Shown here piece after piece: positions 4,135 to 27,399 of a stretch of DNA of 64,000 nt (its first letter is position 1; every line of letters starts with the position of its first letter). Below the pieces are notes generated by a model. The model saw only the letters and a program-made list of their open reading frames with translations. It made no database searches and had not been told where the DNA came from. The stretch comes from Candidatus Magasanikiibacteriota bacterium (GTDB taxonomy: Bacteria > Patescibacteriota > Patescibacteriia > Magasanikbacterales > UBA922): the NCBI GenBank assembly GCA_041665025.1, contig JBAYJP010000002.1, positions 691 to 64,690 of the forward strand, read 5' to 3'. The position numbers and the translations under genes are program-made.

Positions 4135-4167
4135 AAAAAGAACACCCTTTCAGATGTTCTTTAATTT
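4135..4167. repeat. 33-nt direct repeat, copy 1 (aaaaagaacaccctttcagatgttctttaattt). It contains a terminator-like hairpin GAACA-N-TGTTC.
   Basis: Identical to 8406-8438. Confidence 0.8.
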
Positions 4168-4174
4168 CCAAATT

Positions 4175-7122: not shown

Positions 7123-7270
7123 ATTATGGCATATTTATATAATTTTGTCAATATTACACAGTTTTTGTATGGACTATATTACAAAATTAACCTATTTATC
7201 CTTGAAACTTTTAGTGATATATGATAACTTCTCTAGTTCCACCCAATGGACGGGTGGCCGGAGAGAAAAT

Positions 7271-7816
7271 ATGGAAGCTCTGATCATGGCGATCGTGGCC
7301 CTCTTGGGCCAGAGCAGGGGCGAACGGGACCTCAACAAGATTCTGGTCGGGGCAATCGTCAACTACCTGGAGGCTCGGTGCTACCGCACGCTCGAAGACC
7401 TCAAGCGCGCCAACGAGACGCTCATAACCTCGCACAAGGAAATGCGCGAGGCAGAGGGAAGGGCTACGGCAGCAGAGAGGGCTGACGAAAAAATGCGCCG
7501 GCTCTCAAAAAGAGTCGATAAGGCATACTCCCAAATGTTCGAGGCCATGAAGGCGTGCGCTGCTGTCGGGAACCCCGACGAGGGACCCGAGAGGGACAAG
7601 CTTCGGAGCACAACCACGGTGCATTTCCGTATTAGCAGAAAGCTCGGTGACCTGGAAAAGGAAATGGAAGCAGCACCAGAGTTGCTAAAACAGGCCACCA
7701 AAAAATGGGAGGACGCCAAAAAAAGGAAAGGAGATACAGAGGCACGTCTCGAACGTGCCCAGACGGCACTGCGGCATGGGCAGGCCGTCAGGGACTTCCT
7801 GGAGTCCCCTGAGTGA
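7271..7816 (+). CDS. Hypothetical coiled-coil protein, first gene of GC-rich islet 1
   Basis: The start was set at MEALIM, which is preceded by GGAGAG. The upstream part of the longer ORF is AT-rich low complexity. The gene is visibly GC-rich against AT-rich flanks. Confidence 0.5.
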   Translation: MEALIMAIVALLGQSRGERDLNKILVGAIVNYLEARCYRTLEDLKRANETLITSHKEMREAEGRATAAERADEKMRRLSKRVDKAYSQMFEAMKACAAVGNPDEGPERDKLRSTTTVHFRISRKLGDLEKEMEAAPELLKQATKKWEDAKKRKGDTEARLERAQTALRHGQAVRDFLESPE

Positions 7817-7931
7817 CCTTCACGTCGGAGCGGAATTCAACATCCGCCGCAACCAACGCTTCGCTCCGACACATTCGTTTCTTTAAAAACAAAGACGCGA
7901 GTGCAAAATAGCGAAGCGTTGAGATATAAAA

Positions 7932-7960
7932 AACACTGCCCATTACGGCGGTGTTTTTTC
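7932..7960 (+). terminator. Rho-independent terminator
   Basis: Stem cactgcc, loop cattac, stem ggcggtg, then TTTTTT. Confidence 0.6.
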
Positions 7961-8053
7961 TCAATTTGAAAATATGAATATCTTCACAGTCTCAAATCGA
8001 ACGGTGTGGCCTCCAACACACCTTGTTGCTCCCACCTTGAAAGACATTCTTTT

Positions 8054-8344
8054 TCATTGAACCCTCCAACCCTCACGGACGTCGATGCTGTCGCCAGCAT
8101 CCAACTGGCGGAGAACTTCCACGAGCGCGTCCCGAATCGTCAGAAATAGAAGCATCGGCGTGTCTGCCGCGACATCGTCGCCGAAGACATATTCGCCTCT
8201 ACTTTCGAGCATCGCCTGCAGAAGCAGGCGATATGTCCTTGTGCCCGTTTTGTAACCGGGCATGATTGAGATGCCACCCCCTTCTTCGCTGACTACGAAG
8301 AACGTTGCCTGGTTCGGAAGAGCCAAAAACTCTTGAACGGTCAT
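8054..8344 (-). CDS. Hypothetical 96-aa protein, GC-rich islet 1
   Basis: A GGAGGTGA Shine-Dalgarno precedes the ATG on the minus strand. GC-rich. Confidence 0.5.
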   Translation of the reverse strand: MTVQEFLALPNQATFFVVSEEGGGISIMPGYKTGTRTYRLLLQAMLESRGEYVFGDDVAADTPMLLFLTIRDALVEVLRQLDAGDSIDVREGWRVQ

Positions 8345-8405
8345 TGCTATTCACCTCCGTTGCGATTGTAAAATATAATAACATTTCGTATCTTTTTGGT
8401 CAACA

Positions 8406-8438
8406 AAAAAGAACACCCTTTCAGATGTTCTTTAATTT
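8406..8438. repeat. 33-nt direct repeat, copy 2; doubles as a bidirectional terminator downstream of pnp
   Basis: Identical to 4135-4167. Confidence 0.8.
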
Positions 8439-8493
8439 ATAATTTCCAATTTCTTTTTCCGCCTGCCACGTTCTACGTGGTGTCTCCGTGTTT

Positions 8494-17194: not shown

Positions 17195-19084
17195 ATGAAA
17201 AAAATAATCGTAAAATCCCTCATCTTTGCATTTTTATGTACGGCAGCATCAATAGTAATATCATTCCTTAATTTTATACTTGACAAGCAGCTCATTGCTC
17301 TTATAGATAATTTTAAACAACTTACCATTACTAACACAAATAGCCTTGCACCAATAATTTTGACATTTAGCAAGGCTATTTTTTTATACTTTATTTTTTT
17401 CTTCTCTATCTTCCTTATCGGATTTATTATTGCAAAAAAAACTAAAAAAAAACGTTACATCTTTCTAACAATAATTCCCCTACTATCTTTAGTCACACTT
17501 AGGTCCATGGCGGTCGAACCATTCCTCTATCAATTATTTTACAACAGCTCTTCAATTATAAAATGTATAATGGATGTCACGACAAAAATCCCCTACAGTA
17601 AGATCATTTTTGATGTCTTAATCACCGCACATATTATCACACTAACTTTGATTATCGCATACACCCAAAAACAACGTTACGTCATCCTATCATTATGGAT
17701 AATTCTTTTTTCGGGCTACTATATATTCAGGACATCGGTAACACAAATACGGAACACAGAACCAAATGAAGAAACTATCATATTTATTGTCGTAGACTCT
17801 CTTAGAAAAGACGCTATAAAAAATAATCCGCAGTTATTTTTGCACACGTTATATCAAAACTCATTCGTTGCAGAAAATATGTTTACTCCAAACCCCGCAA
17901 CTGTCCCGGCGATGGCAGCAATACTGAGCAGTAAATACCCATACACTTCGCGTTCGACAGCTATGTTTTTGGATAAACAACTTGATATTTCTTATATTAA
18001 TGAACTAAAAAAAGATTATCACATCTCCATCCACACAGATTCGACAGATGACGACATAATCAATCGCTCAAACTTCAACATACCCTTTGATTATATCAAT
18101 GCTCCATATATTGATAACACCTCACAATTTATAGCTGGTGTACTCAAAAAAAATGTTGTATTGCTCTCCTTTATCATCCCCGCGGTCAGAAATATATTCA
18201 TCCCTGAATATTATGAGTCAGATATTAATACCAATAGTGAGCATCTCATTGAACCCTTCATTAACTATCTCAAACAGAACAAGAAACAAAAAAAGATAGC
18301 ATTTTTAGGTTTAGGAAATTTACACATACCCTACGAAGCACGTTACCCATACTACCAAAAATATCCGAATGCGCGTGGGACGTATTTTAACTGGTCATTT
18401 GATCACGCAGATTATCTATACGAAGGAAATGACACAGTACTAAACCAAAATATAAAAAATTTGTATCTTACCAATCTGACTGTCGCAGATGACCAGGTGA
18501 AAAACATATTTATACTTCTTCAAAACAACAACCTGCTAGCAAATACCACGGTAGTTGTACTCTCCGACCATGGTGAAAGCTTATATGAAAATGACTTGCA
18601 TCTATATTCTCACAACAATATCGAATCATCATATGTGGTAAACGTACCTTTTTTGGTATATAAAAATGAAATCCGCGGCATACAAAACTCACAAAACTTT
18701 GCACTCATGGATGCCATAGAAATCGCGCGCCATCCAGAAAATGCAGAATCATTTCGACGTGAATTCATTTATTTAGAGACTGACCTAGACTTAAAGGACA
18801 AAAAAAGTCCTCTGTATATCGAGCATGCCGGCGATGTATATGACACGGATGACATGAATAATATGAAATTCAAAGATAAAAATATCTGGCAACAATTCAA
18901 AAAACGAGGTATTATATACAAACAATATCAGCTCACATACAACCCAACAGAAGAAACGTATTCTTTGTATAATCGGATTGATGACCCACTATACCAAACA
19001 AACATACAAAACGAAAATCCAGAGATATACGCTATTATGAAAAAACAACTTGACAAATTTATAGCCGAATCAAATATCTATTAA
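17195..19084 (+). CDS. Polytopic membrane protein with a sulfatase-like (LtaS/phosphoethanolamine-transferase family) domain
   Basis: Multiple N-terminal TM helices, then IIFIVVDSLRKD and VVVLSDHGES, which are alkaline-phosphatase-superfamily motifs. Confidence 0.65.
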   Translation: MKKIIVKSLIFAFLCTAASIVISFLNFILDKQLIALIDNFKQLTITNTNSLAPIILTFSKAIFLYFIFFFSIFLIGFIIAKKTKKKRYIFLTIIPLLSLVTLRSMAVEPFLYQLFYNSSSIIKCIMDVTTKIPYSKIIFDVLITAHIITLTLIIAYTQKQRYVILSLWIILFSGYYIFRTSVTQIRNTEPNEETIIFIVVDSLRKDAIKNNPQLFLHTLYQNSFVAENMFTPNPATVPAMAAILSSKYPYTSRSTAMFLDKQLDISYINELKKDYHISIHTDSTDDDIINRSNFNIPFDYINAPYIDNTSQFIAGVLKKNVVLLSFIIPAVRNIFIPEYYESDINTNSEHLIEPFINYLKQNKKQKKIAFLGLGNLHIPYEARYPYYQKYPNARGTYFNWSFDHADYLYEGNDTVLNQNIKNLYLTNLTVADDQVKNIFILLQNNNLLANTTVVVLSDHGESLYENDLHLYSHNNIESSYVVNVPFLVYKNEIRGIQNSQNFALMDAIEIARHPENAESFRREFIYLETDLDLKDKKSPLYIEHAGDVYDTDDMNNMKFKDKNIWQQFKKRGIIYKQYQLTYNPTEETYSLYNRIDDPLYQTNIQNENPEIYAIMKKQLDKFIAESNIY

Positions 19085-19114
19085 GCCAAACTCCTAAATT
19101 TATTTAACCCATAT

Positions 19115-20638
19115 ATGAAAATAATCAATTGGATCAAAAAACATTCCTTGTTTATTGTAATTCTTGTATGTTCATTGGGTTTACACATATTGTCTCTCCT
19201 CAATAGAGGAGATTTTTCATTTGATGAAACATTCAGTACATATTTTAGTTCTCTACCATGGATAGAATCCCTAAAATATTGGACAATTGAAACCAACCCG
19301 CCACTCCACATGTTATTGCTTAGATTATGGATCATACTATGGGGGAACAACGAGATAGCTATACGCTTTCTCTCTACGATCTTTAATCTACTGTCATTGG
19401 GGTCACTCTACTACCTCGTACATAAGTGGTATTCAAAAAATCATGCCCTACTCGCTGTGGCAATAATGAGCCTTTCAGATTATTTTATTGTACTTGGAAC
19501 TGAAGCCCGGACATACAGTCTATTAAGTTTTCTTACTATCTTTTCTTGCATCTATTTTCTAAAAATAACACAGGAAAACAATATATCCAACGTAACAATT
19601 CTTACTTATAGCATAATACAACTGCTCCTATTATATTCCCACCTGACCTCACTGCTGATTATAATTTTACAAATTCTTATAACCATCCTTATATACAAAG
19701 AGAAAGAAAAAACAAAAAAAATCATACAAGCAAATCTGTGGCCATTCTTGCTATTTCTTGTCTGGCTCATACCATCTATTATAGCCAAACTAAGTTCATC
19801 AGCCTCAACCGGTTGGTTTTTCAATGAGTCAAAAAGTGGAAGAAATCTTATGTACGTAGTAGCCGATTTATTTGTGTACGAACCACAAAATATTATTATG
19901 TTTCTAATTGTCATGGGTTTTATTGGGGTATGTGTATATAATATGTCAGCTCTTAGACACCTAGAAAAAACAAAAAAAAATATTCATACGATAATTATTT
20001 TGTGGGCCCTCACCCCAATGATTGCTGCCAGCTTGCTTGGGATACACCTCCCTAAATATATTACTTTTTCATTACCTGCGATTTCGATTTTGTTTGCTTT
20101 TTCAATTATTTCAATACCTGACAAAAAACTAAAAATCAGCGCCATAATAATATTCATATCTCTTTTATTGCCATATACATACGCCAGTGCTATTACACCC
20201 CTTAAATCATATCGCCAAATACTATCTTATATTGAAAAAAATAAGACAGAGCATAGCATGATTATGACAGTGCCTTTTAATCAAATTATGGAAATAAAAA
20301 GATATTATACAGGCACGATACCACTCGTGGGGGTCTATCCACGAGATGATGATTTCTCATTTGAAGAACGTACCGCAAAATTCAATTGGCAAGAAATTTC
20401 TATTACTCAAAAAGTACTCGATACCTACATGGAAGAAAAGACCAAGGATACGGATACTATCTTTTTTATTCAATATGCACCAAACCTCCTAGAACCACCC
20501 GTTCCAAAATGGTTTATCACACATGGGTGGAAGTTAACGGCATGTCTTAAACCTCAACTACGAAATAATGCATATGTTTTCATGTTTCAAGCCCCAAACT
20601 ATCAGACATCTACTTCAACAGTCACACAAGTTAATTGA
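19115..20638 (+). CDS. GT-C family glycosyltransferase (ArnT/PMT-like)
   Basis: About 12 TM helices. The first loop carries the DE motif (FDETFS), as in ArnT/PMT. Confidence 0.6.
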   Translation: MKIINWIKKHSLFIVILVCSLGLHILSLLNRGDFSFDETFSTYFSSLPWIESLKYWTIETNPPLHMLLLRLWIILWGNNEIAIRFLSTIFNLLSLGSLYYLVHKWYSKNHALLAVAIMSLSDYFIVLGTEARTYSLLSFLTIFSCIYFLKITQENNISNVTILTYSIIQLLLLYSHLTSLLIIILQILITILIYKEKEKTKKIIQANLWPFLLFLVWLIPSIIAKLSSSASTGWFFNESKSGRNLMYVVADLFVYEPQNIIMFLIVMGFIGVCVYNMSALRHLEKTKKNIHTIIILWALTPMIAASLLGIHLPKYITFSLPAISILFAFSIISIPDKKLKISAIIIFISLLLPYTYASAITPLKSYRQILSYIEKNKTEHSMIMTVPFNQIMEIKRYYTGTIPLVGVYPRDDDFSFEERTAKFNWQEISITQKVLDTYMEEKTKDTDTIFFIQYAPNLLEPPVPKWFITHGWKLTACLKPQLRNNAYVFMFQAPNYQTSTSTVTQVN

Positions 20639-21467
20639 CCCTCTTGATGCTGAACTGTTAATCGCACACGTGATACAAAAACCGCGGGAATTTGTTGTTG
20701 CGCATCCAAATTTTATGATTAGAAGATTAAGAGATTGGAAGATTGGAAGATTATTTAAAAAACGAGCACATGGTGTCCCACTTGCATATGTAACAGGGCA
20801 TAAAGAATTTTTTGGATTGGACTTTGTGATAAATAAACATGTATTGATACCCCGACCGGAGACGGAGATGATTGTCTCTCTGGCGCTTGAAAAATTGAAG
20901 ATTCAAGATTCAAGATTGAAGACTATTTTGACTGATGTGGGAACGGGGTCTGGCTGTATTCCTATTTCTGTCACTTCAACACTCAAGCACTTCAACACTC
21001 AAGCACTAACCGTCTGTGCAACGGACATTTCCAAATCTGCACTTAAAGTTGCGAAACAAAACGCACAAAAATATAATGTTAATATTACATTTCTACACGG
21101 AAATCTTTTGGAACCCGCGATTAAAAGATTAAAAATTAAAGACTCGAGATTGATTATAACGGCGAATTTACCATACTTAACTTTAGAACAATTTCAAAAT
21201 GAGCACTCAATCCAACACGAACCTAAACGAGCACTCGTGGCAGACAACAACGGACTTGGCTTATATGAACAACTCCTCAAACAGATCCGATTATTAGTTA
21301 CTAATTACCAATTACTAGTTACGTGTCTCTTCGAAATCGATCCGCGCCAATCTCCTCAAATCTCTGGACTTATCAAAAAATATTTACCAGATTCAACATT
21401 TGAAATAAAAAAAGACCTCGCCGGGCATGATCGAGTCGTCTGTATAACTATCCACAGCGTTTCTTGA
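20568..21467 (+). CDS. prmC: Release-factor glutamine N5-methyltransferase PrmC (HemK), carrying several in-frame repeat insertions
   Basis: Motifs LAYVTGHKEFFGLDFVINKHVLIPRPETE and DVGTGSGCI, plus NLPY (an NPPY variant). The start is uncertain because the ATG at 20568 overlaps the upstream gene by 70 nt. Confidence 0.8.
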   Translation: MHMFSCFKPQTIRHLLQQSHKLIDPLDAELLIAHVIQKPREFVVAHPNFMIRRLRDWKIGRLFKKRAHGVPLAYVTGHKEFFGLDFVINKHVLIPRPETEMIVSLALEKLKIQDSRLKTILTDVGTGSGCIPISVTSTLKHFNTQALTVCATDISKSALKVAKQNAQKYNVNITFLHGNLLEPAIKRLKIKDSRLIITANLPYLTLEQFQNEHSIQHEPKRALVADNNGLGLYEQLLKQIRLLVTNYQLLVTCLFEIDPRQSPQISGLIKKYLPDSTFEIKKDLAGHDRVVCITIHSVS

Positions 21468-21646
21468 CTCAAATTCAAGAGCGTGGCATAGTAAATTCAT
21501 TATGAAACTTTGGAATGTACAATTTGTTTCTTCTAGCTCATCAGACCTGCCCAAGGTCAGATGAGCTTTATGTTGTTGAATAACAAAAACATAACGCGCA
21601 GCTGGCCTAAGTGGGCCAGTTTTTGTTCACCCACAGGAGGATAACC

Positions 21647-21982
21647 GTGAGATATCGTGGCACTATGGGAGCGTTCATCCCGGTCGAAGAAGTCGCGAGA
21701 GCATTCCGCAAGCATGGATGGGAAGTTACCATCGACGAGGACAAGATCGTCTTCACCAAGGACGGCAGAAGCGGTTGGCATCGTTACACCACAGACGGCG
21801 GATGCAAGAAGGAGGACAGACGAATCAACTGCCCCTGCTACCCCACCATCAATCCGCCACAGCCTGGTGACACATGGGCGCAGGAAAGATTCGACATCTA
21901 CGAAGAGCTCGAGTTGATCCAAAAAGAAGCAAACCCACACTTCACGCCTGGGCGCCGCGGGTTCGACGGCCCAATCTGCTGA
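21647..21982 (+). CDS. Hypothetical 111-aa protein, GC-rich islet 2
   Basis: GTG start 7 nt after AGGAGG (21635-40). Alternative start at the ATG of MGAFIP. GC-rich; contains CPCYP. Confidence 0.5.
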   Translation: MRYRGTMGAFIPVEEVARAFRKHGWEVTIDEDKIVFTKDGRSGWHRYTTDGGCKKEDRRINCPCYPTINPPQPGDTWAQERFDIYEELELIQKEANPHFTPGRRGFDGPIC

Positions 21983-21996
21983 TGGAGGGCAACATG

Positions 21997-22302
21997 CCGC
22001 GAGACATCCTTGACATCGCCCGTCAAGCAGTTGTAGTCGATGCAACGGCCACTACTCCAGACGACCTCATTTTGACTCTTCAGTACTGGTGGACGGATGG
22101 AGCAGAAAGCCTCGGACTGCCCGTCAGAAAGTTCACCGAAGACATTCCACCCAACATCAAGGTCGGCATGAAGCTGGGGACCCTTATCAGAGTAGATGAC
22201 GAGGGGTACGTACTCATCGGGCTCATCACTGAACTCGATAAACACAACACTGAAGTCGTCACTACTATTGCTTTGGTCCCCACCAACGAACTCACTCTCT
22301 AG
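21997..22302 (+). CDS. Hypothetical 101-aa protein, GC-rich islet 2
   Basis: GGAGGG lies 5 nt before the ATG of MPRDIL. A terminator-like hairpin follows at about 22375-22410. Confidence 0.5.
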   Translation, partial: PRDILDIARQAVVVDATATTPDDLILTLQYWWTDGAESLGLPVRKFTEDIPPNIKVGMKLGTLIRVDDEGYVLIGLITELDKHNTEVVTTIALVPTNELTL

Positions 22303-22466
22303 CCTACTTTCACCCGCTGCCGAGTTGCCGGACTCGTTCAAAATCCGGCACACATACAATGCGCGTATTGTACAAAACAAACACCAGCCTATAGAGCTGG
22401 TTTTGTTTTTTATCCAAGTAGTAGTCAATATGATAATGTAGCAATTCTCAAAAATTTCTCCAATTT

Positions 22467-23642
22467 CTAATTACTTGTTTCCACTTTCCCCAATTGATTC
22501 ACCACTTCAACCCACGTCTTCCCTGGCTTATATATCATCTCATGAAAATCCACATCACGGAGTTGTAATTTTTCTTCCTTACTCCCCTTATACCATTGCG
22601 CGGGAATCTGATATCCATCACGAAATACAACAGCCTCGCCTTCGCCAATAGTCTCCATATCTATCCTCCCTATGCTGTCCAATACTTTTGTTTTTACATA
22701 TATGACGACAACATTGTCCGCTGTGATGAGAGTTCCATCCTGGTCAGCATGTGGCATACCAGATTGGTATCGTTCATATTTGTCAGTTGAAGAATTAAAT
22801 TTCCACGTTGCTTCATACGTCGGCGGCAAAAATGATACGGTAAATTCACTCACACAATCTGTTGTACATTTCTCACGTTCTTCAAATTTCCAAACAGTAC
22901 TCGTCACATCTAGTTTCTGGTTTCCTAGCCCAACTTCCCCATAATCTTCCCAGCCTTTGTTCCATAATTCAGACGACGTATACACATTATGTGGCGCATA
23001 CCTGTCTTGAGACCGCCAAAAATATCCGCCTTTATAAAATTCATTAAAATCAAATATGCCATATTCATCGATGACTTCAAGCGCATCAGGAGATCCGCCA
23101 CAATGCATATACATAATATTGTCATGTTCAGAGACCCAATCCAAATAATATGGGCGTGCGCTTCGAACGGGACCGACTTTGGACAGTACGGGCAGGTCTC
23201 GACCTGCCCCTTCGGCCCCAACAGGATAAATCGCCATAAATCTCGTATAATTTGACTCAACCGGCGCCTCATACACAATGGACGCTTGCGACAAACCAGA
23301 TTGTGGCCGTGCGTCTGGATGATTTTCTATCATGACCGCAACTAATTTTGGATTTACCTTATCTTGCGAATCTACGCATACGCCGTCTAACATTCTCTGA
23401 AATTTGCACGCCTTATTCTCTGCCCCGGCTTGTACGGGCAGGTCTAGGCCTGCCCCTTCATTGCCAATGCCTGAAACACGATTTTTAAAAACCCCATATC
23501 CAAAAAACCCTGCCAACCCAATCGCCACCACACACACAATGCCTGCCAATATATACAAATATTTAACCTCATCTATACCAAAATTATTTTTAATATATCC
23601 AAAAATTTTTTCTTTCATATGCGTATATAATACTCGAAACAT
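22467..23642 (-). CDS. DUF3048-family (YerB-like) membrane-anchored protein
   Basis: N-terminal TM helix. NHPDARPQSGLSQASIVYEAPVE...TRFMAIY is typical of DUF3048. It contains two copies of a GC-rich palindromic 27-mer. Confidence 0.65.
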   Translation of the reverse strand: MFRVLYTHMKEKIFGYIKNNFGIDEVKYLYILAGIVCVVAIGLAGFFGYGVFKNRVSGIGNEGAGLDLPVQAGAENKACKFQRMLDGVCVDSQDKVNPKLVAVMIENHPDARPQSGLSQASIVYEAPVESNYTRFMAIYPVGAEGAGRDLPVLSKVGPVRSARPYYLDWVSEHDNIMYMHCGGSPDALEVIDEYGIFDFNEFYKGGYFWRSQDRYAPHNVYTSSELWNKGWEDYGEVGLGNQKLDVTSTVWKFEEREKCTTDCVSEFTVSFLPPTYEATWKFNSSTDKYERYQSGMPHADQDGTLITADNVVVIYVKTKVLDSIGRIDMETIGEGEAVVFRDGYQIPAQWYKGSKEEKLQLRDVDFHEMIYKPGKTWVEVVNQLGKVETSN

Positions 23643-27162: not shown

Positions 27163-27399
27163 ATGATAGGAGTAATTGGACGAGGATATGGAGTGTACGG
27201 ACTACCACCTTCGAAAAAGGTGGCTACAGACCCAGCGGCCCCAACCCCGGGGGCACTTCTTCGCACCTATTGTGGTCAATGGTGTAGAGAAGATGAGCAC
27301 TTTTTTTGGAACTGCACAAATCCGGATTGCGGGAAGATTCTCATACCCGCATCGGAGTTTTTTTGCCGGTGCCGTGTGTGTACACGACCGGCAAGATAG
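27163..27399 (+). CDS. Small Cys-rich (zinc-ribbon-like) protein of 78 aa
   Basis: The start was set at MIGVIG, which follows a GAGGAGGT Shine-Dalgarno. Cysteine pattern CGQWC...CTNPDC...CRCRVC. Relatively GC-rich. A long hairpin terminator follows at 27414-27494. Confidence 0.45.
   Translation: MIGVIGRGYGVYGLPPSKKVATDPAAPTPGALLRTYCGQWCREDEHFFWNCTNPDCGKILIPASEFFCRCRVCTRPAR

Follow-up and report, generated by a model that had tools for sequence, protein, structure and literature searches.

A GC-rich two-gene islet between prmC and a DUF3048 gene of Candidatus Magasanikbacteria: a possible passenger cassette with a candidate serine-sensing leader

Mobile insertion cassettes, such as MIC231 of Bacillus cereus, and cargo-carrying elements that resemble miniature inverted-repeat transposable elements are small units without a transposase, in which passenger open reading frames (ORFs) lie between short terminal inverted repeats (PMC6542083; PMC4337579). 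The amino-acid attenuators (trpL, hisL, pheL, thrL, and leuL) combine a promoter-proximal short ORF, which contains a run of codons for a single amino acid, with alternative hairpins that end in a terminator (PMC1183508). Features of both kinds are found at islet 2, a GC-rich block with two small ORFs (ORF1 and ORF2) in Candidatus Magasanikbacteria. The window, the whole stretch of DNA analysed here, is a 64-kb chromosomal stretch (contig JBAYJP010000002.1, positions 691 to 64,690) of a metagenome-assembled genome (MAG) with about 39% GC. The organism is a member of the candidate phyla radiation (CPR; Patescibacteria), whose members are tiny auxotrophic episymbionts with accessory genes and regulation that are almost unknown. 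We read islet 2 as a horizontally acquired passenger cassette that arrived in a transposon-like manner and is transcribed from a resident upstream promoter, possibly through a serine-sensing leader, and we assign a probability of about 0.5 to this reading as a whole. Taken by itself, the claim that islet 2 is inserted foreign DNA and that its ORFs encode genuine proteins is very probable.

Islet 2 is located between two convergent genes identified by Pfam, prmC (20568–21467, plus strand) and the DUF3048 gene (22467–23642, minus strand), and its two ORFs carry the NCBI locus tags WCW16_01540 and WCW16_01545; the MAG also corresponds to contig k141_138385 of ENA ERZ27249449. The GC content is 0.55–0.57 over 21600–22330 and 0.31–0.40 in the neighbouring genes. 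The foreign block extends from 21589 to 22377 when the right direct repeat is included, and the cassette proper from 21589 to 22371 (about 0.78 kb). The neighbours within 10 kb on either side are housekeeping genes (prfA, prmC, DUF3048, rplY, ftsW, gyrB, secE, nusG, and rplK), and no recombinase, integrase, or phage gene is found among them.

Relatives gathered through the DUF3048 protein show that the convergent DUF3048/prmC order is widespread in Magasanikbacteria and Uhrbacteria. In the nearest relatives (L003 and L007, with a DUF3048 protein 73% identical) and in L006, the slot between the two genes is empty; the genes are 76–83 bp apart, and the spacer contains a bidirectional terminator only (AAAACAAAACCAGC...GCTGGTTTTGTTTT). 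The ancestral terminator of prmC and the DUF3048 gene is preserved in the window (AAAACAAACA-CCAGC...GCTGG-TTTTGTTTT, 22371–22412), where it aligns with the terminators of L003, L004, and L006 with a score of 56, compared with 17 ± 2 for shuffled sequences. Because the terminator is homologous and the site is empty in the nearest relatives, islet 2 is an insertion, and the point of insertion is within the A-tract of the terminator that the two genes share. The preliminary description of this DNA had proposed a GC-rich foreign block between prmC and the DUF3048 gene, followed by a terminator hairpin. GC content, codon usage, the empty site, and the insertion-like ends bear out the block, and the hairpin is found at 22383–22401 with a T-run. 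A weak GC hairpin (GCCGGA, 11 nt, TCCGGC; 22327–22349, plus strand), read from the sequence and with poor thermodynamic support, lies in the 3′ untranslated region.

The two ends of islet 2 resemble those of a transposed element. On the left, the direct repeat ACAAAA (21583–21588), a putative target-site duplication, is followed by the terminal inverted repeat ACATAACGCGCA (21589–21600). On the right, the inverted repeat TGCGCGTATTGT (22360–22371), which agrees with the left repeat in 10 of its 12 positions, is followed by the second ACAAAA (22372–22377). The two inverted repeats (ACAWWACGCGCA-type ends) are the sole matches in 64 kb to the motif derived from them. In a search of 121-nt boundary zones for an inverted repeat of at least 10/12 directly flanked by a perfect 6-bp direct repeat, one of 5000 shuffles and none of 2518 zone pairs from the rest of the window showed this configuration; with duplications of 5–10 bp allowed, none of 1997 zone pairs did. 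Deletion of 21589–22377 in silico yields ...GTTGAATAACAAAACAAACACCAGC..., and this product lines up base by base with the empty L006 site (...CTTGAATCAAAACAAAACCAGC...).

The cassette would thus have arrived by a transposition-type event into the terminator A-tract, with duplication of the 6-bp target ACAAAA. ORF1 and ORF2 are the only genes inside, and no transposase family is found among them. Among known kinds of element, mobile insertion cassettes are therefore the closest, and movement would have been in trans. Like these cassettes, islet 2 is small and transposase-less, has passenger ORFs between short terminal inverted repeats, and comes with a duplicated target and with relatives in which the site is empty. 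It differs from them in that its repeats are just 12 nt long, its host is a CPR bacterium, its target is a terminator A-tract, and its family is not assignable; in addition, searches of the 64-kb window and of 1.04 Mb of related loci turned up neither a second copy of the repeat nor a cognate insertion sequence or transposase. The last of these differences weighs against a transposon-like mechanism, as do several other points. The inverted repeat is short, imperfect (10/12), and unique in the data searched, the duplicated target lies within an A-rich tract with internal repeats, and the parameters of the repeat search were picked after the site had been seen. Moreover, the AT-rich 107 nt from prmC to the left end are also missing from the nearest relatives. 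We consider a transposon-like mechanism to be an even call. The same signature of repeat ends is absent from 12 other GC-rich islets, except for one AT-rich case in the right half of islet 1, which is described below.

ORF1 (21647–21982, plus strand) encodes 111 residues from a GTG start located 6 nt downstream of the Shine–Dalgarno site AGGAGG (21635–21640), and it ends with TGA at 21980–21982. The CPCYP motif lies in the stretch ...INCPCYPTINPP... of ORF1. ORF2, on the same strand, ends with TAG at 22300–22302 and has two possible starts. ATG 21982 gives 106 residues and a 1-nt overlap with ORF1; ATG 21994, 4 nt downstream of GGAGGG (21984–21989), gives 102 residues and an 11-nt gap, and is the better-supported start. 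The ORF2 protein is acidic (D+E 17, K+R 8). Most of what had been described from the sequence alone is retained here, including the length, the GTG start, and the CPCYP motif of ORF1, the TGATG junction at which the ORF1 stop codon overlaps ATG 21982, and the GGAGGG ahead of the second ATG. The spacings had been given as 7 and 5 nt instead of 6 and 4 nt, and ORF2 as 101 residues.

ORF length alone is no coding evidence in islet 2: the longest open frames in the shuffled 731-nt block are 107 ± 26 codons, and the minus strand of the block contains longer ORFs (162 and 176 aa). Codon positions are informative. The GC contents of positions 1, 2, and 3 are 0.55, 0.47, and 0.67 in ORF1 and 0.59, 0.36, and 0.62 in ORF2, compared with a third-position value (GC3) of 0.29–0.38 in the host, and position 1 is rich in purine (0.64–0.71) and in G (0.35–0.37). 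This periodicity is clear in the two plus-strand frames only. Together with the two Shine–Dalgarno sites and a homologue of ORF1 from AT-rich DNA, it indicates that ORF1 and ORF2 are coding. Both are cytoplasmic-looking small proteins with foreign codon usage. Weighing against two real proteins are the lack of a homologue of ORF2 and its unusable structure prediction (predicted local distance difference test, pLDDT, 40). One gene caller passed over ORF1.

An exhaustive HMMER search with ORF1 covered 1.84 billion representatives and returned a sole true match, P0123 (109 aa, 39% identity over the full length, E = 1.6e-13), which is encoded in AT-rich DNA of about 40% GC. The two proteins share an N-terminal YRGT, GW, CYPxINPP, EEL.LI, and a C-terminal GPIC. 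P0123 starts with MSYRGT and ORF1 with (V/M)RYRGT; for this reason, the GTG start of ORF1 is favoured over the ATG at 21665 annotated by NCBI. Three repeat proteins (P0124–P0126, 1313–6791 aa) were rejected as homologues, since their matches are short β-hairpin motifs only (GWAVG..G.I..T.DGG..W, in BNR/Ycf48-like and cadherin-like repeats, summed over 7–13 stretches). A word-indexed search of 5.8 billion proteins with ORF1 and ORF2 gave self matches only, and no homologue of ORF2 was found there or in the IMG/VR and JGI metagenome searches. Scans of the latter two collections with the single proteins and with the alignment of ORF1 and P0123 were also negative. For both proteins, Pfam, NCBIfam, PADLOC, and PHROGs contained no family even at E ≤ 1, a sequence search of the PDB gave nothing, and tblastn against phages and plasmids gave nothing. 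Thus, ORF1 belongs to a two-member family and ORF2 is a singleton, in agreement with the initial impression that neither protein matches a known family.

AlphaFold2, run on the ORF1 sequence alone, gave a mediocre model (pLDDT 60.8) with a better-defined N-terminal β-α-β-β-β unit. Its weak Foldseek match is to a structure of a double-stranded RNA-binding domain (dsRBD; 1di2_B, E = 0.68). The Foldseek comparison proposed earlier for both proteins gave nothing at E ≤ 0.001 against the PDB and BFVD, and the ORF2 model could not be used for it.

The contig that encodes P0123 (L087, 987 bp) contains three small genes with 4-nt overlaps, of which P0123 is the last. A hairpin begins directly past the P0123 stop codon, and the contig ends 28 nt beyond that codon. 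The two upstream genes are mutual paralogues and, according to hhalign, unrelated to ORF1 and ORF2. Because the neighbours of P0123 are unrelated and a hairpin follows it, the pairing of ORF1 with ORF2 appears not to be kept in the sole available comparison. The two paralogues (L087 2–633; 105 aa each, 35% identical) have in common GC.LIL.C.P and a C-terminal PERRK, overlap by 4 nt at stop and start, show phage-like gene packing, and match no family.

The sole promoter-like site, detected by a consensus scan (TTGACT, 17 nt, TGgCATAGT; 21464–21492, plus strand), is located at the end of prmC, such that the prmC stop codon (TGA, 21465–21467) falls within the −35 element. The position of this site is conserved. 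All eight fully sequenced occupied slots of relatives have, at the prmC end, a TTGAC(A) −35 element and a TGn-type −10 element 17 nt apart. Between the left repeat and ORF1 there are 46 nt, which are filled by a hairpin (hairpin B) and the Shine–Dalgarno site. With no room for a promoter inside the cassette, transcription would start from the TTGACT/CATAGT promoter upstream.

The leader of about 130 nt downstream of this promoter contains a 20-codon ORF (MKLWNVQFVSSSSSDLPKVR*; 21502–21564, plus strand) with five consecutive Ser codons (TCT TCT AGC TCA TCA, 21529–21543), which extend into the 5′ arm of hairpin A. Folding of the plus strand predicts three helices. Hairpin A pairs segments 1 and 2 (21535–21567, −20 kcal/mol) and is followed by UUUAUGUUGUUG. 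Hairpin B pairs segments 3 and 4 (21600–21621, −13.7 kcal/mol) and is followed by TTTTTGTT, the whole element ending at 21629. The alternative helix pairs segments 2 and 3 (21554–21608, −21.3 kcal/mol) and excludes both hairpins. Hairpin B, with a U-run at 21620–21627, resembles an intrinsic terminator and lies 6 nt ahead of the ORF1 Shine–Dalgarno site; a small AU hairpin is present between hairpins A and B. The leader stop codon (21562–21564) is inside segment 2, which is the 3′ arm of hairpin A. When segment 1 is masked in silico, the minimum-energy fold moves from hairpins A and B to the 2:3 helix, and hairpin B is gone. Between about 21499 and ORF1, the predicted transcript forms more structure than shuffled sequences do (z = −3.8).

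Serine stands out in the encoded proteins as well. Across the six frames of the window, only three runs of at least five Ser exist, and at this window-wide rate the chance that a run lands in the leader is about 0.004. ORF1 and ORF2 contain one Ser each (0.9%), compared with a mean of 5.5% and a minimum of 2.5% for the 61 other ORFs of the window. The binomial probability of two Ser in 213 residues is 5e-4, and a low Ser content is not seen in the ORFs of the other GC-rich islets. TCN codons make up four of the five Ser codons in the leader, and this codon class senses serine depletion in B. subtilis sinR (PMC3862929).

By the attenuation logic of trp/his-type leaders (PMC1183508), the ribosome would, with ample seryl-tRNA, reach the leader stop codon and cover segment 2, terminator B would form, and the genes would be off. 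With scarce seryl-tRNA, the ribosome would stall on the Ser codons, the 2:3 helix would form, and transcription would read through into ORF1 and ORF2. A switch that turns on during serine starvation would be consistent with the single Ser in each protein. We therefore put the leader forward, tentatively and at somewhat less than an even chance, as a candidate ribosome-mediated serine attenuator of the trp/his type, on the basis of its predicted reading frame and folds.

The resemblance to the known amino-acid attenuators includes the promoter-proximal short ORF, the run of codons for a single amino acid, the alternative 1:2, 2:3, and 3:4 helices with a 3:4 terminator and U-run, and the placement of the stop codon such that a terminating ribosome would cover segment 2. 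The differences are that the codons specify serine, that the leader ORF would be near-leaderless, that the downstream genes are Ser-poor ORFans and not Ser-biosynthesis genes, and that the leader is not conserved in relatives. To our knowledge, no classical attenuator uses serine.

Several observations weigh against this assignment. The leader ORF has no Shine–Dalgarno site, and its AUG is 2–4 nt past a transcription start that is only predicted (about 21499); its translation would therefore be leaderless. No leader peptide like that of islet 2 is found in the occupied slots of relatives. P0123 is Ser-poor too (1.8%) in a different context, so that Ser poverty may be a family trait and not an adaptation. 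In addition, the attenuator straddles the left inverted repeat, which implies that one of the two signals is fortuitous or that the leader was assembled after insertion. A candidate that we dropped is the leader as a conserved feature of the slot, since the likeness between the window and L004 is not significant beyond the −35 element.

Three other explanations of islet 2 can be set against a passenger cassette. Two were already touched on in the preliminary description, which found the pair consistent with a toxin–antitoxin-like or phage-derived cassette. In a type II toxin–antitoxin module (e.g., HicAB), ORF1 would play the part of the toxin and ORF2, which is acidic, that of the antitoxin, with co-translation via TGATG. 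The two small adjacent genes with a possible stop/start overlap and hence translational coupling, the acidic second protein, and the foreign, mobile-looking context are in line with such a module, and the N-terminal part of the ORF1 model, predicted as α-β-β-β (pLDDT 75–85), is loosely dsRBD/HicA-like, as is the weak match to 1di2_B. However, no toxin, antitoxin, helix-turn-helix, ribbon-helix-helix, or AbrB family was detected in Pfam, NCBIfam, or PADLOC at E ≤ 1, no DNA-binding domain is apparent, and there is no significant fold match. The better-supported start of ORF2 does not overlap ORF1, and the cargo of other slots is mostly a single gene. As to the proposed co-occurrence of homologues as a pair, P0123 is the final gene of its operon, behind other small genes, and what comes next, up to the contig end 28 nt past its stop codon, is a hairpin and not an overlapping ORF2-like partner; ORF2 has no homologue to compare. 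We give a toxin–antitoxin module a small chance. Our best guess for the role of the proteins is a starvation- or conflict-related accessory function, and not toxin–antitoxin.

Alternatively, islet 2 could be a phage or other foreign fragment captured by illegitimate recombination, or by homology-facilitated recombination following the uptake of DNA, in which case the repeats and the Ser leader would be coincidental and the genes silent or leaky. Unrelated GC-rich ORFs occupy the slot in many relatives, none with detectable repeat ends; the conserved flanks could act as homology arms; P0123 belongs to a phage-like operon with 4-nt overlaps; and hairpins A and B are both terminator-like and lie ahead of ORF1. 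As in phage morons, islet 2 is a compact unit of deviant composition between resident genes, with transcription signals at its bounds, but its surroundings are housekeeping genes instead of a prophage, and it lacks an internal promoter. A phage origin receives no direct support from PHROGs, the phage tblastn search, or IMG/VR, all of which are blank. Fragment capture is also opposed by the combination of inverted and direct repeats, which no real-sequence control reproduced, and by the in-silico excision, which recreates the empty site; the Ser-run leader and two proteins with 0.9% Ser are specific and jointly improbable, and both ORFs are intact with strong ribosome-binding sites. We judge such a capture to be rather unlikely. 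Finally, the block might contain no coding cassette at all. It would then be either the gene of a GC-rich structured RNA or a chimera from assembly or binning, and its ORFs would reflect only the scarcity of stop codons in GC-rich DNA. The ORF lengths expected by chance, the longer ORFs of the minus strand, and the gene caller that omitted ORF1 would agree with this. Against it are the periodicity confined to the two plus-strand frames, the full-length homologue of ORF1 from AT-rich DNA, and comparable GC-rich inserts in the same slot of other MAGs. Rfam 15 gives, at the gathering threshold, only LSU rRNA and tRNA-Leu in the whole window, and at E ≤ 1 only miRNA noise in 21400–22500. An assembly artefact, the possibility of which had been flagged at the outset, is refuted by the contigs: one of 440 kb from ENA and one of 10.4 kb from Logan contain both junctions and match at 100% identity across 1.1 kb, and the proteins and junctions recur on a 278-kb NCBI/JGI contig. 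The three contigs were made by different assemblers, although they may share one sample. We regard the absence of a coding cassette as highly improbable. Searches for variants of the same species with an empty prmC/DUF3048 site returned just the same contigs.

Among relatives, the slot holds GC-elevated small ORFs, mostly one gene each. The cargo is a 192-aa signal-peptide ORFan in L004 and L089, a different one again in L088, a 128-aa ORF in L008, and a 239-aa ORF in L014. A family termed A2 (124–162 aa) fills the slot in L011, L013, L015, L016, and L019, and is paired in L019. Neither ORF1 nor ORF2 is related to A2 (hhalign) or to the other slot cargo. Islet 2 shares with integron cassettes its shortness, the lack of an internal promoter, the ORFan content, the resident upstream promoter, and a cargo that varies by lineage. 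It differs in that no attC-like RYYYAAC...GTTRRRY pair occurs in 21400–22520 on either strand, no integrase lies within 10 kb on either side, and the slot holds one cassette and not an array.

The A2 family, which has no Pfam match (slots include L011 2863–3351 and L016 7031–7405), has a GC3 of 0.52–0.74 that is kept even with vertical inheritance alongside the flanks. A single 4.2-kb block, 84% identical, is common to L013 and L015. A2 evolves faster than its flanks, the L013 and L016 proteins being 27% identical and the flank DNA 71–74% identical. A purine-rich 3′ element (AAGGAGRAAAGGAGGGAAAGA...GGATAAAA-N-ATTTTATC) is common to L004/L089 and L088 despite their different cargo, and lies between the cargo and the ancestral terminator (L004 9140–9240, L089 1590–1720, L088 1600–1700). 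The prfA–prmC interval is variable as well. In the window (17195–20638) it contains a sulfatase-like gene and a PMT_2 glycosyltransferase gene, in L003 it contains GT2 and methyltransferase genes, and in L004 and L006 prfA adjoins prmC directly.

A 28-nt GC-rich palindromic repeat (GTACGGGCAGGTCTCGACCTGCCCCTTC) occurs twice in the DUF3048 gene on the minus strand (23186–23213 and 23432–23459). At 23432, it codes for EGAGLDLPV within the N-terminal linker of the protein, and this copy is present in relatives. At 23186, the repeat adds eight residues in frame (GAGRDLPV) to the conserved core, an insertion that the 13 closest homologues shown in the alignment do not have. A 9-mer of the repeat (GACCTGCCC) is found in hairpin A as well (21544–21552), where it again codes for D-L-P; the window contains four matches to this 9-mer, compared with 0.14 expected.

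Islet 1 (7250–8350), another GC-rich block in the window, had been described as similar to islet 2 in composition and in its pair of small proteins, and a common donor had been suggested. It contains an ORFan of 181 aa with a coiled coil (7271–7816, plus strand, GC3 0.69) and one of 96 aa (8054–8344, minus strand, GC3 0.62), neither with a family match. The likeness in composition holds, with GC3 values of 0.62–0.69 and a correlation of relative synonymous codon usage with islet 2 of r = 0.56, whereas that in architecture does not, the two ORFs of islet 1 being convergent and non-overlapping. The same composition values weakly favour a common donor; against it, no protein or end sequence is shared, and BLAST of all islet ORFs against each other shows that islet 2 shares no family with islet 1 or the other islets. 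CAATTT/GAAAATATGAAT (7962–7979) and ATTTATAATTTC/CAATTT (8435–8452) delimit the right half of islet 1; they form an inverted repeat with a 6-bp direct repeat that is AT-rich and possibly due to chance. A 40-nt terminator-containing repeat (AAAAAGAACACCCTTTCAGATGTTCTTTAATTT...) is present at 4135–4174 and 8406–8445 with 93% identity, once after a 484-aa PEP-utilizer-like gene near tRNA-Leu and once after pnp, at the right edge of islet 1. Paralogous 484- and 495-aa genes and islet 1 lie between the two copies.

A third, smaller GC-rich islet (27163–27399, plus strand, GC 0.52) contains a 78-aa Cys-rich ORF that is zinc-ribbon-like (CGQWC...CTNPDC...CRCRVC), preceded by AGAGGAGG and followed by a terminator. 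In 716 kb of related loci, a few dozen blocks were flagged as compact GC-rich islets with small or medium ORFs and a GC3 of 0.66–0.86, the clearest being L006 13785–14351, L010 2751–4000, L022 10451–11500, L035 11921–12400, L041 11475–11816, L042 3714–4061, and L064 11301–12250. GC-rich islets thus appear to be a general feature of Magasanikbacteria-like genomes.

If the attenuator and the repeat signature are coincidental, islet 2 is an ordinary small horizontally acquired ORFan islet. The filled and empty sites would provide a precise example of gene gain in a streamlined CPR genome, by an insertion into a terminator that disrupts nothing. Throughout the class, the slot downstream of prmC recurrently holds unrelated, fast-evolving GC-rich small ORFs and is thereby a handle on the accessory gene pool. 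The most far-reaching possibility, that a working serine-specific attenuator acts on a leaderless leader peptide and that the slot is an integrase-less gene-capture platform of Magasanikbacteria, is doubtful at present. If true, it would be the first serine-specific attenuator of this kind, and the CPR would have its first reported example. The capture slot would gather unrelated GC-rich ORFan cassettes behind a conserved promoter, and islet 2 would be a mobile module of two almost serine-free proteins that is turned on when a host-dependent cell lacks seryl-tRNA. Classical attenuation would then cover a further amino acid, a further phylum-level group, and cargo that is not biosynthetic, and the switch would suggest that the ORFans act in amino-acid starvation, the central stress for a host-dependent cell.

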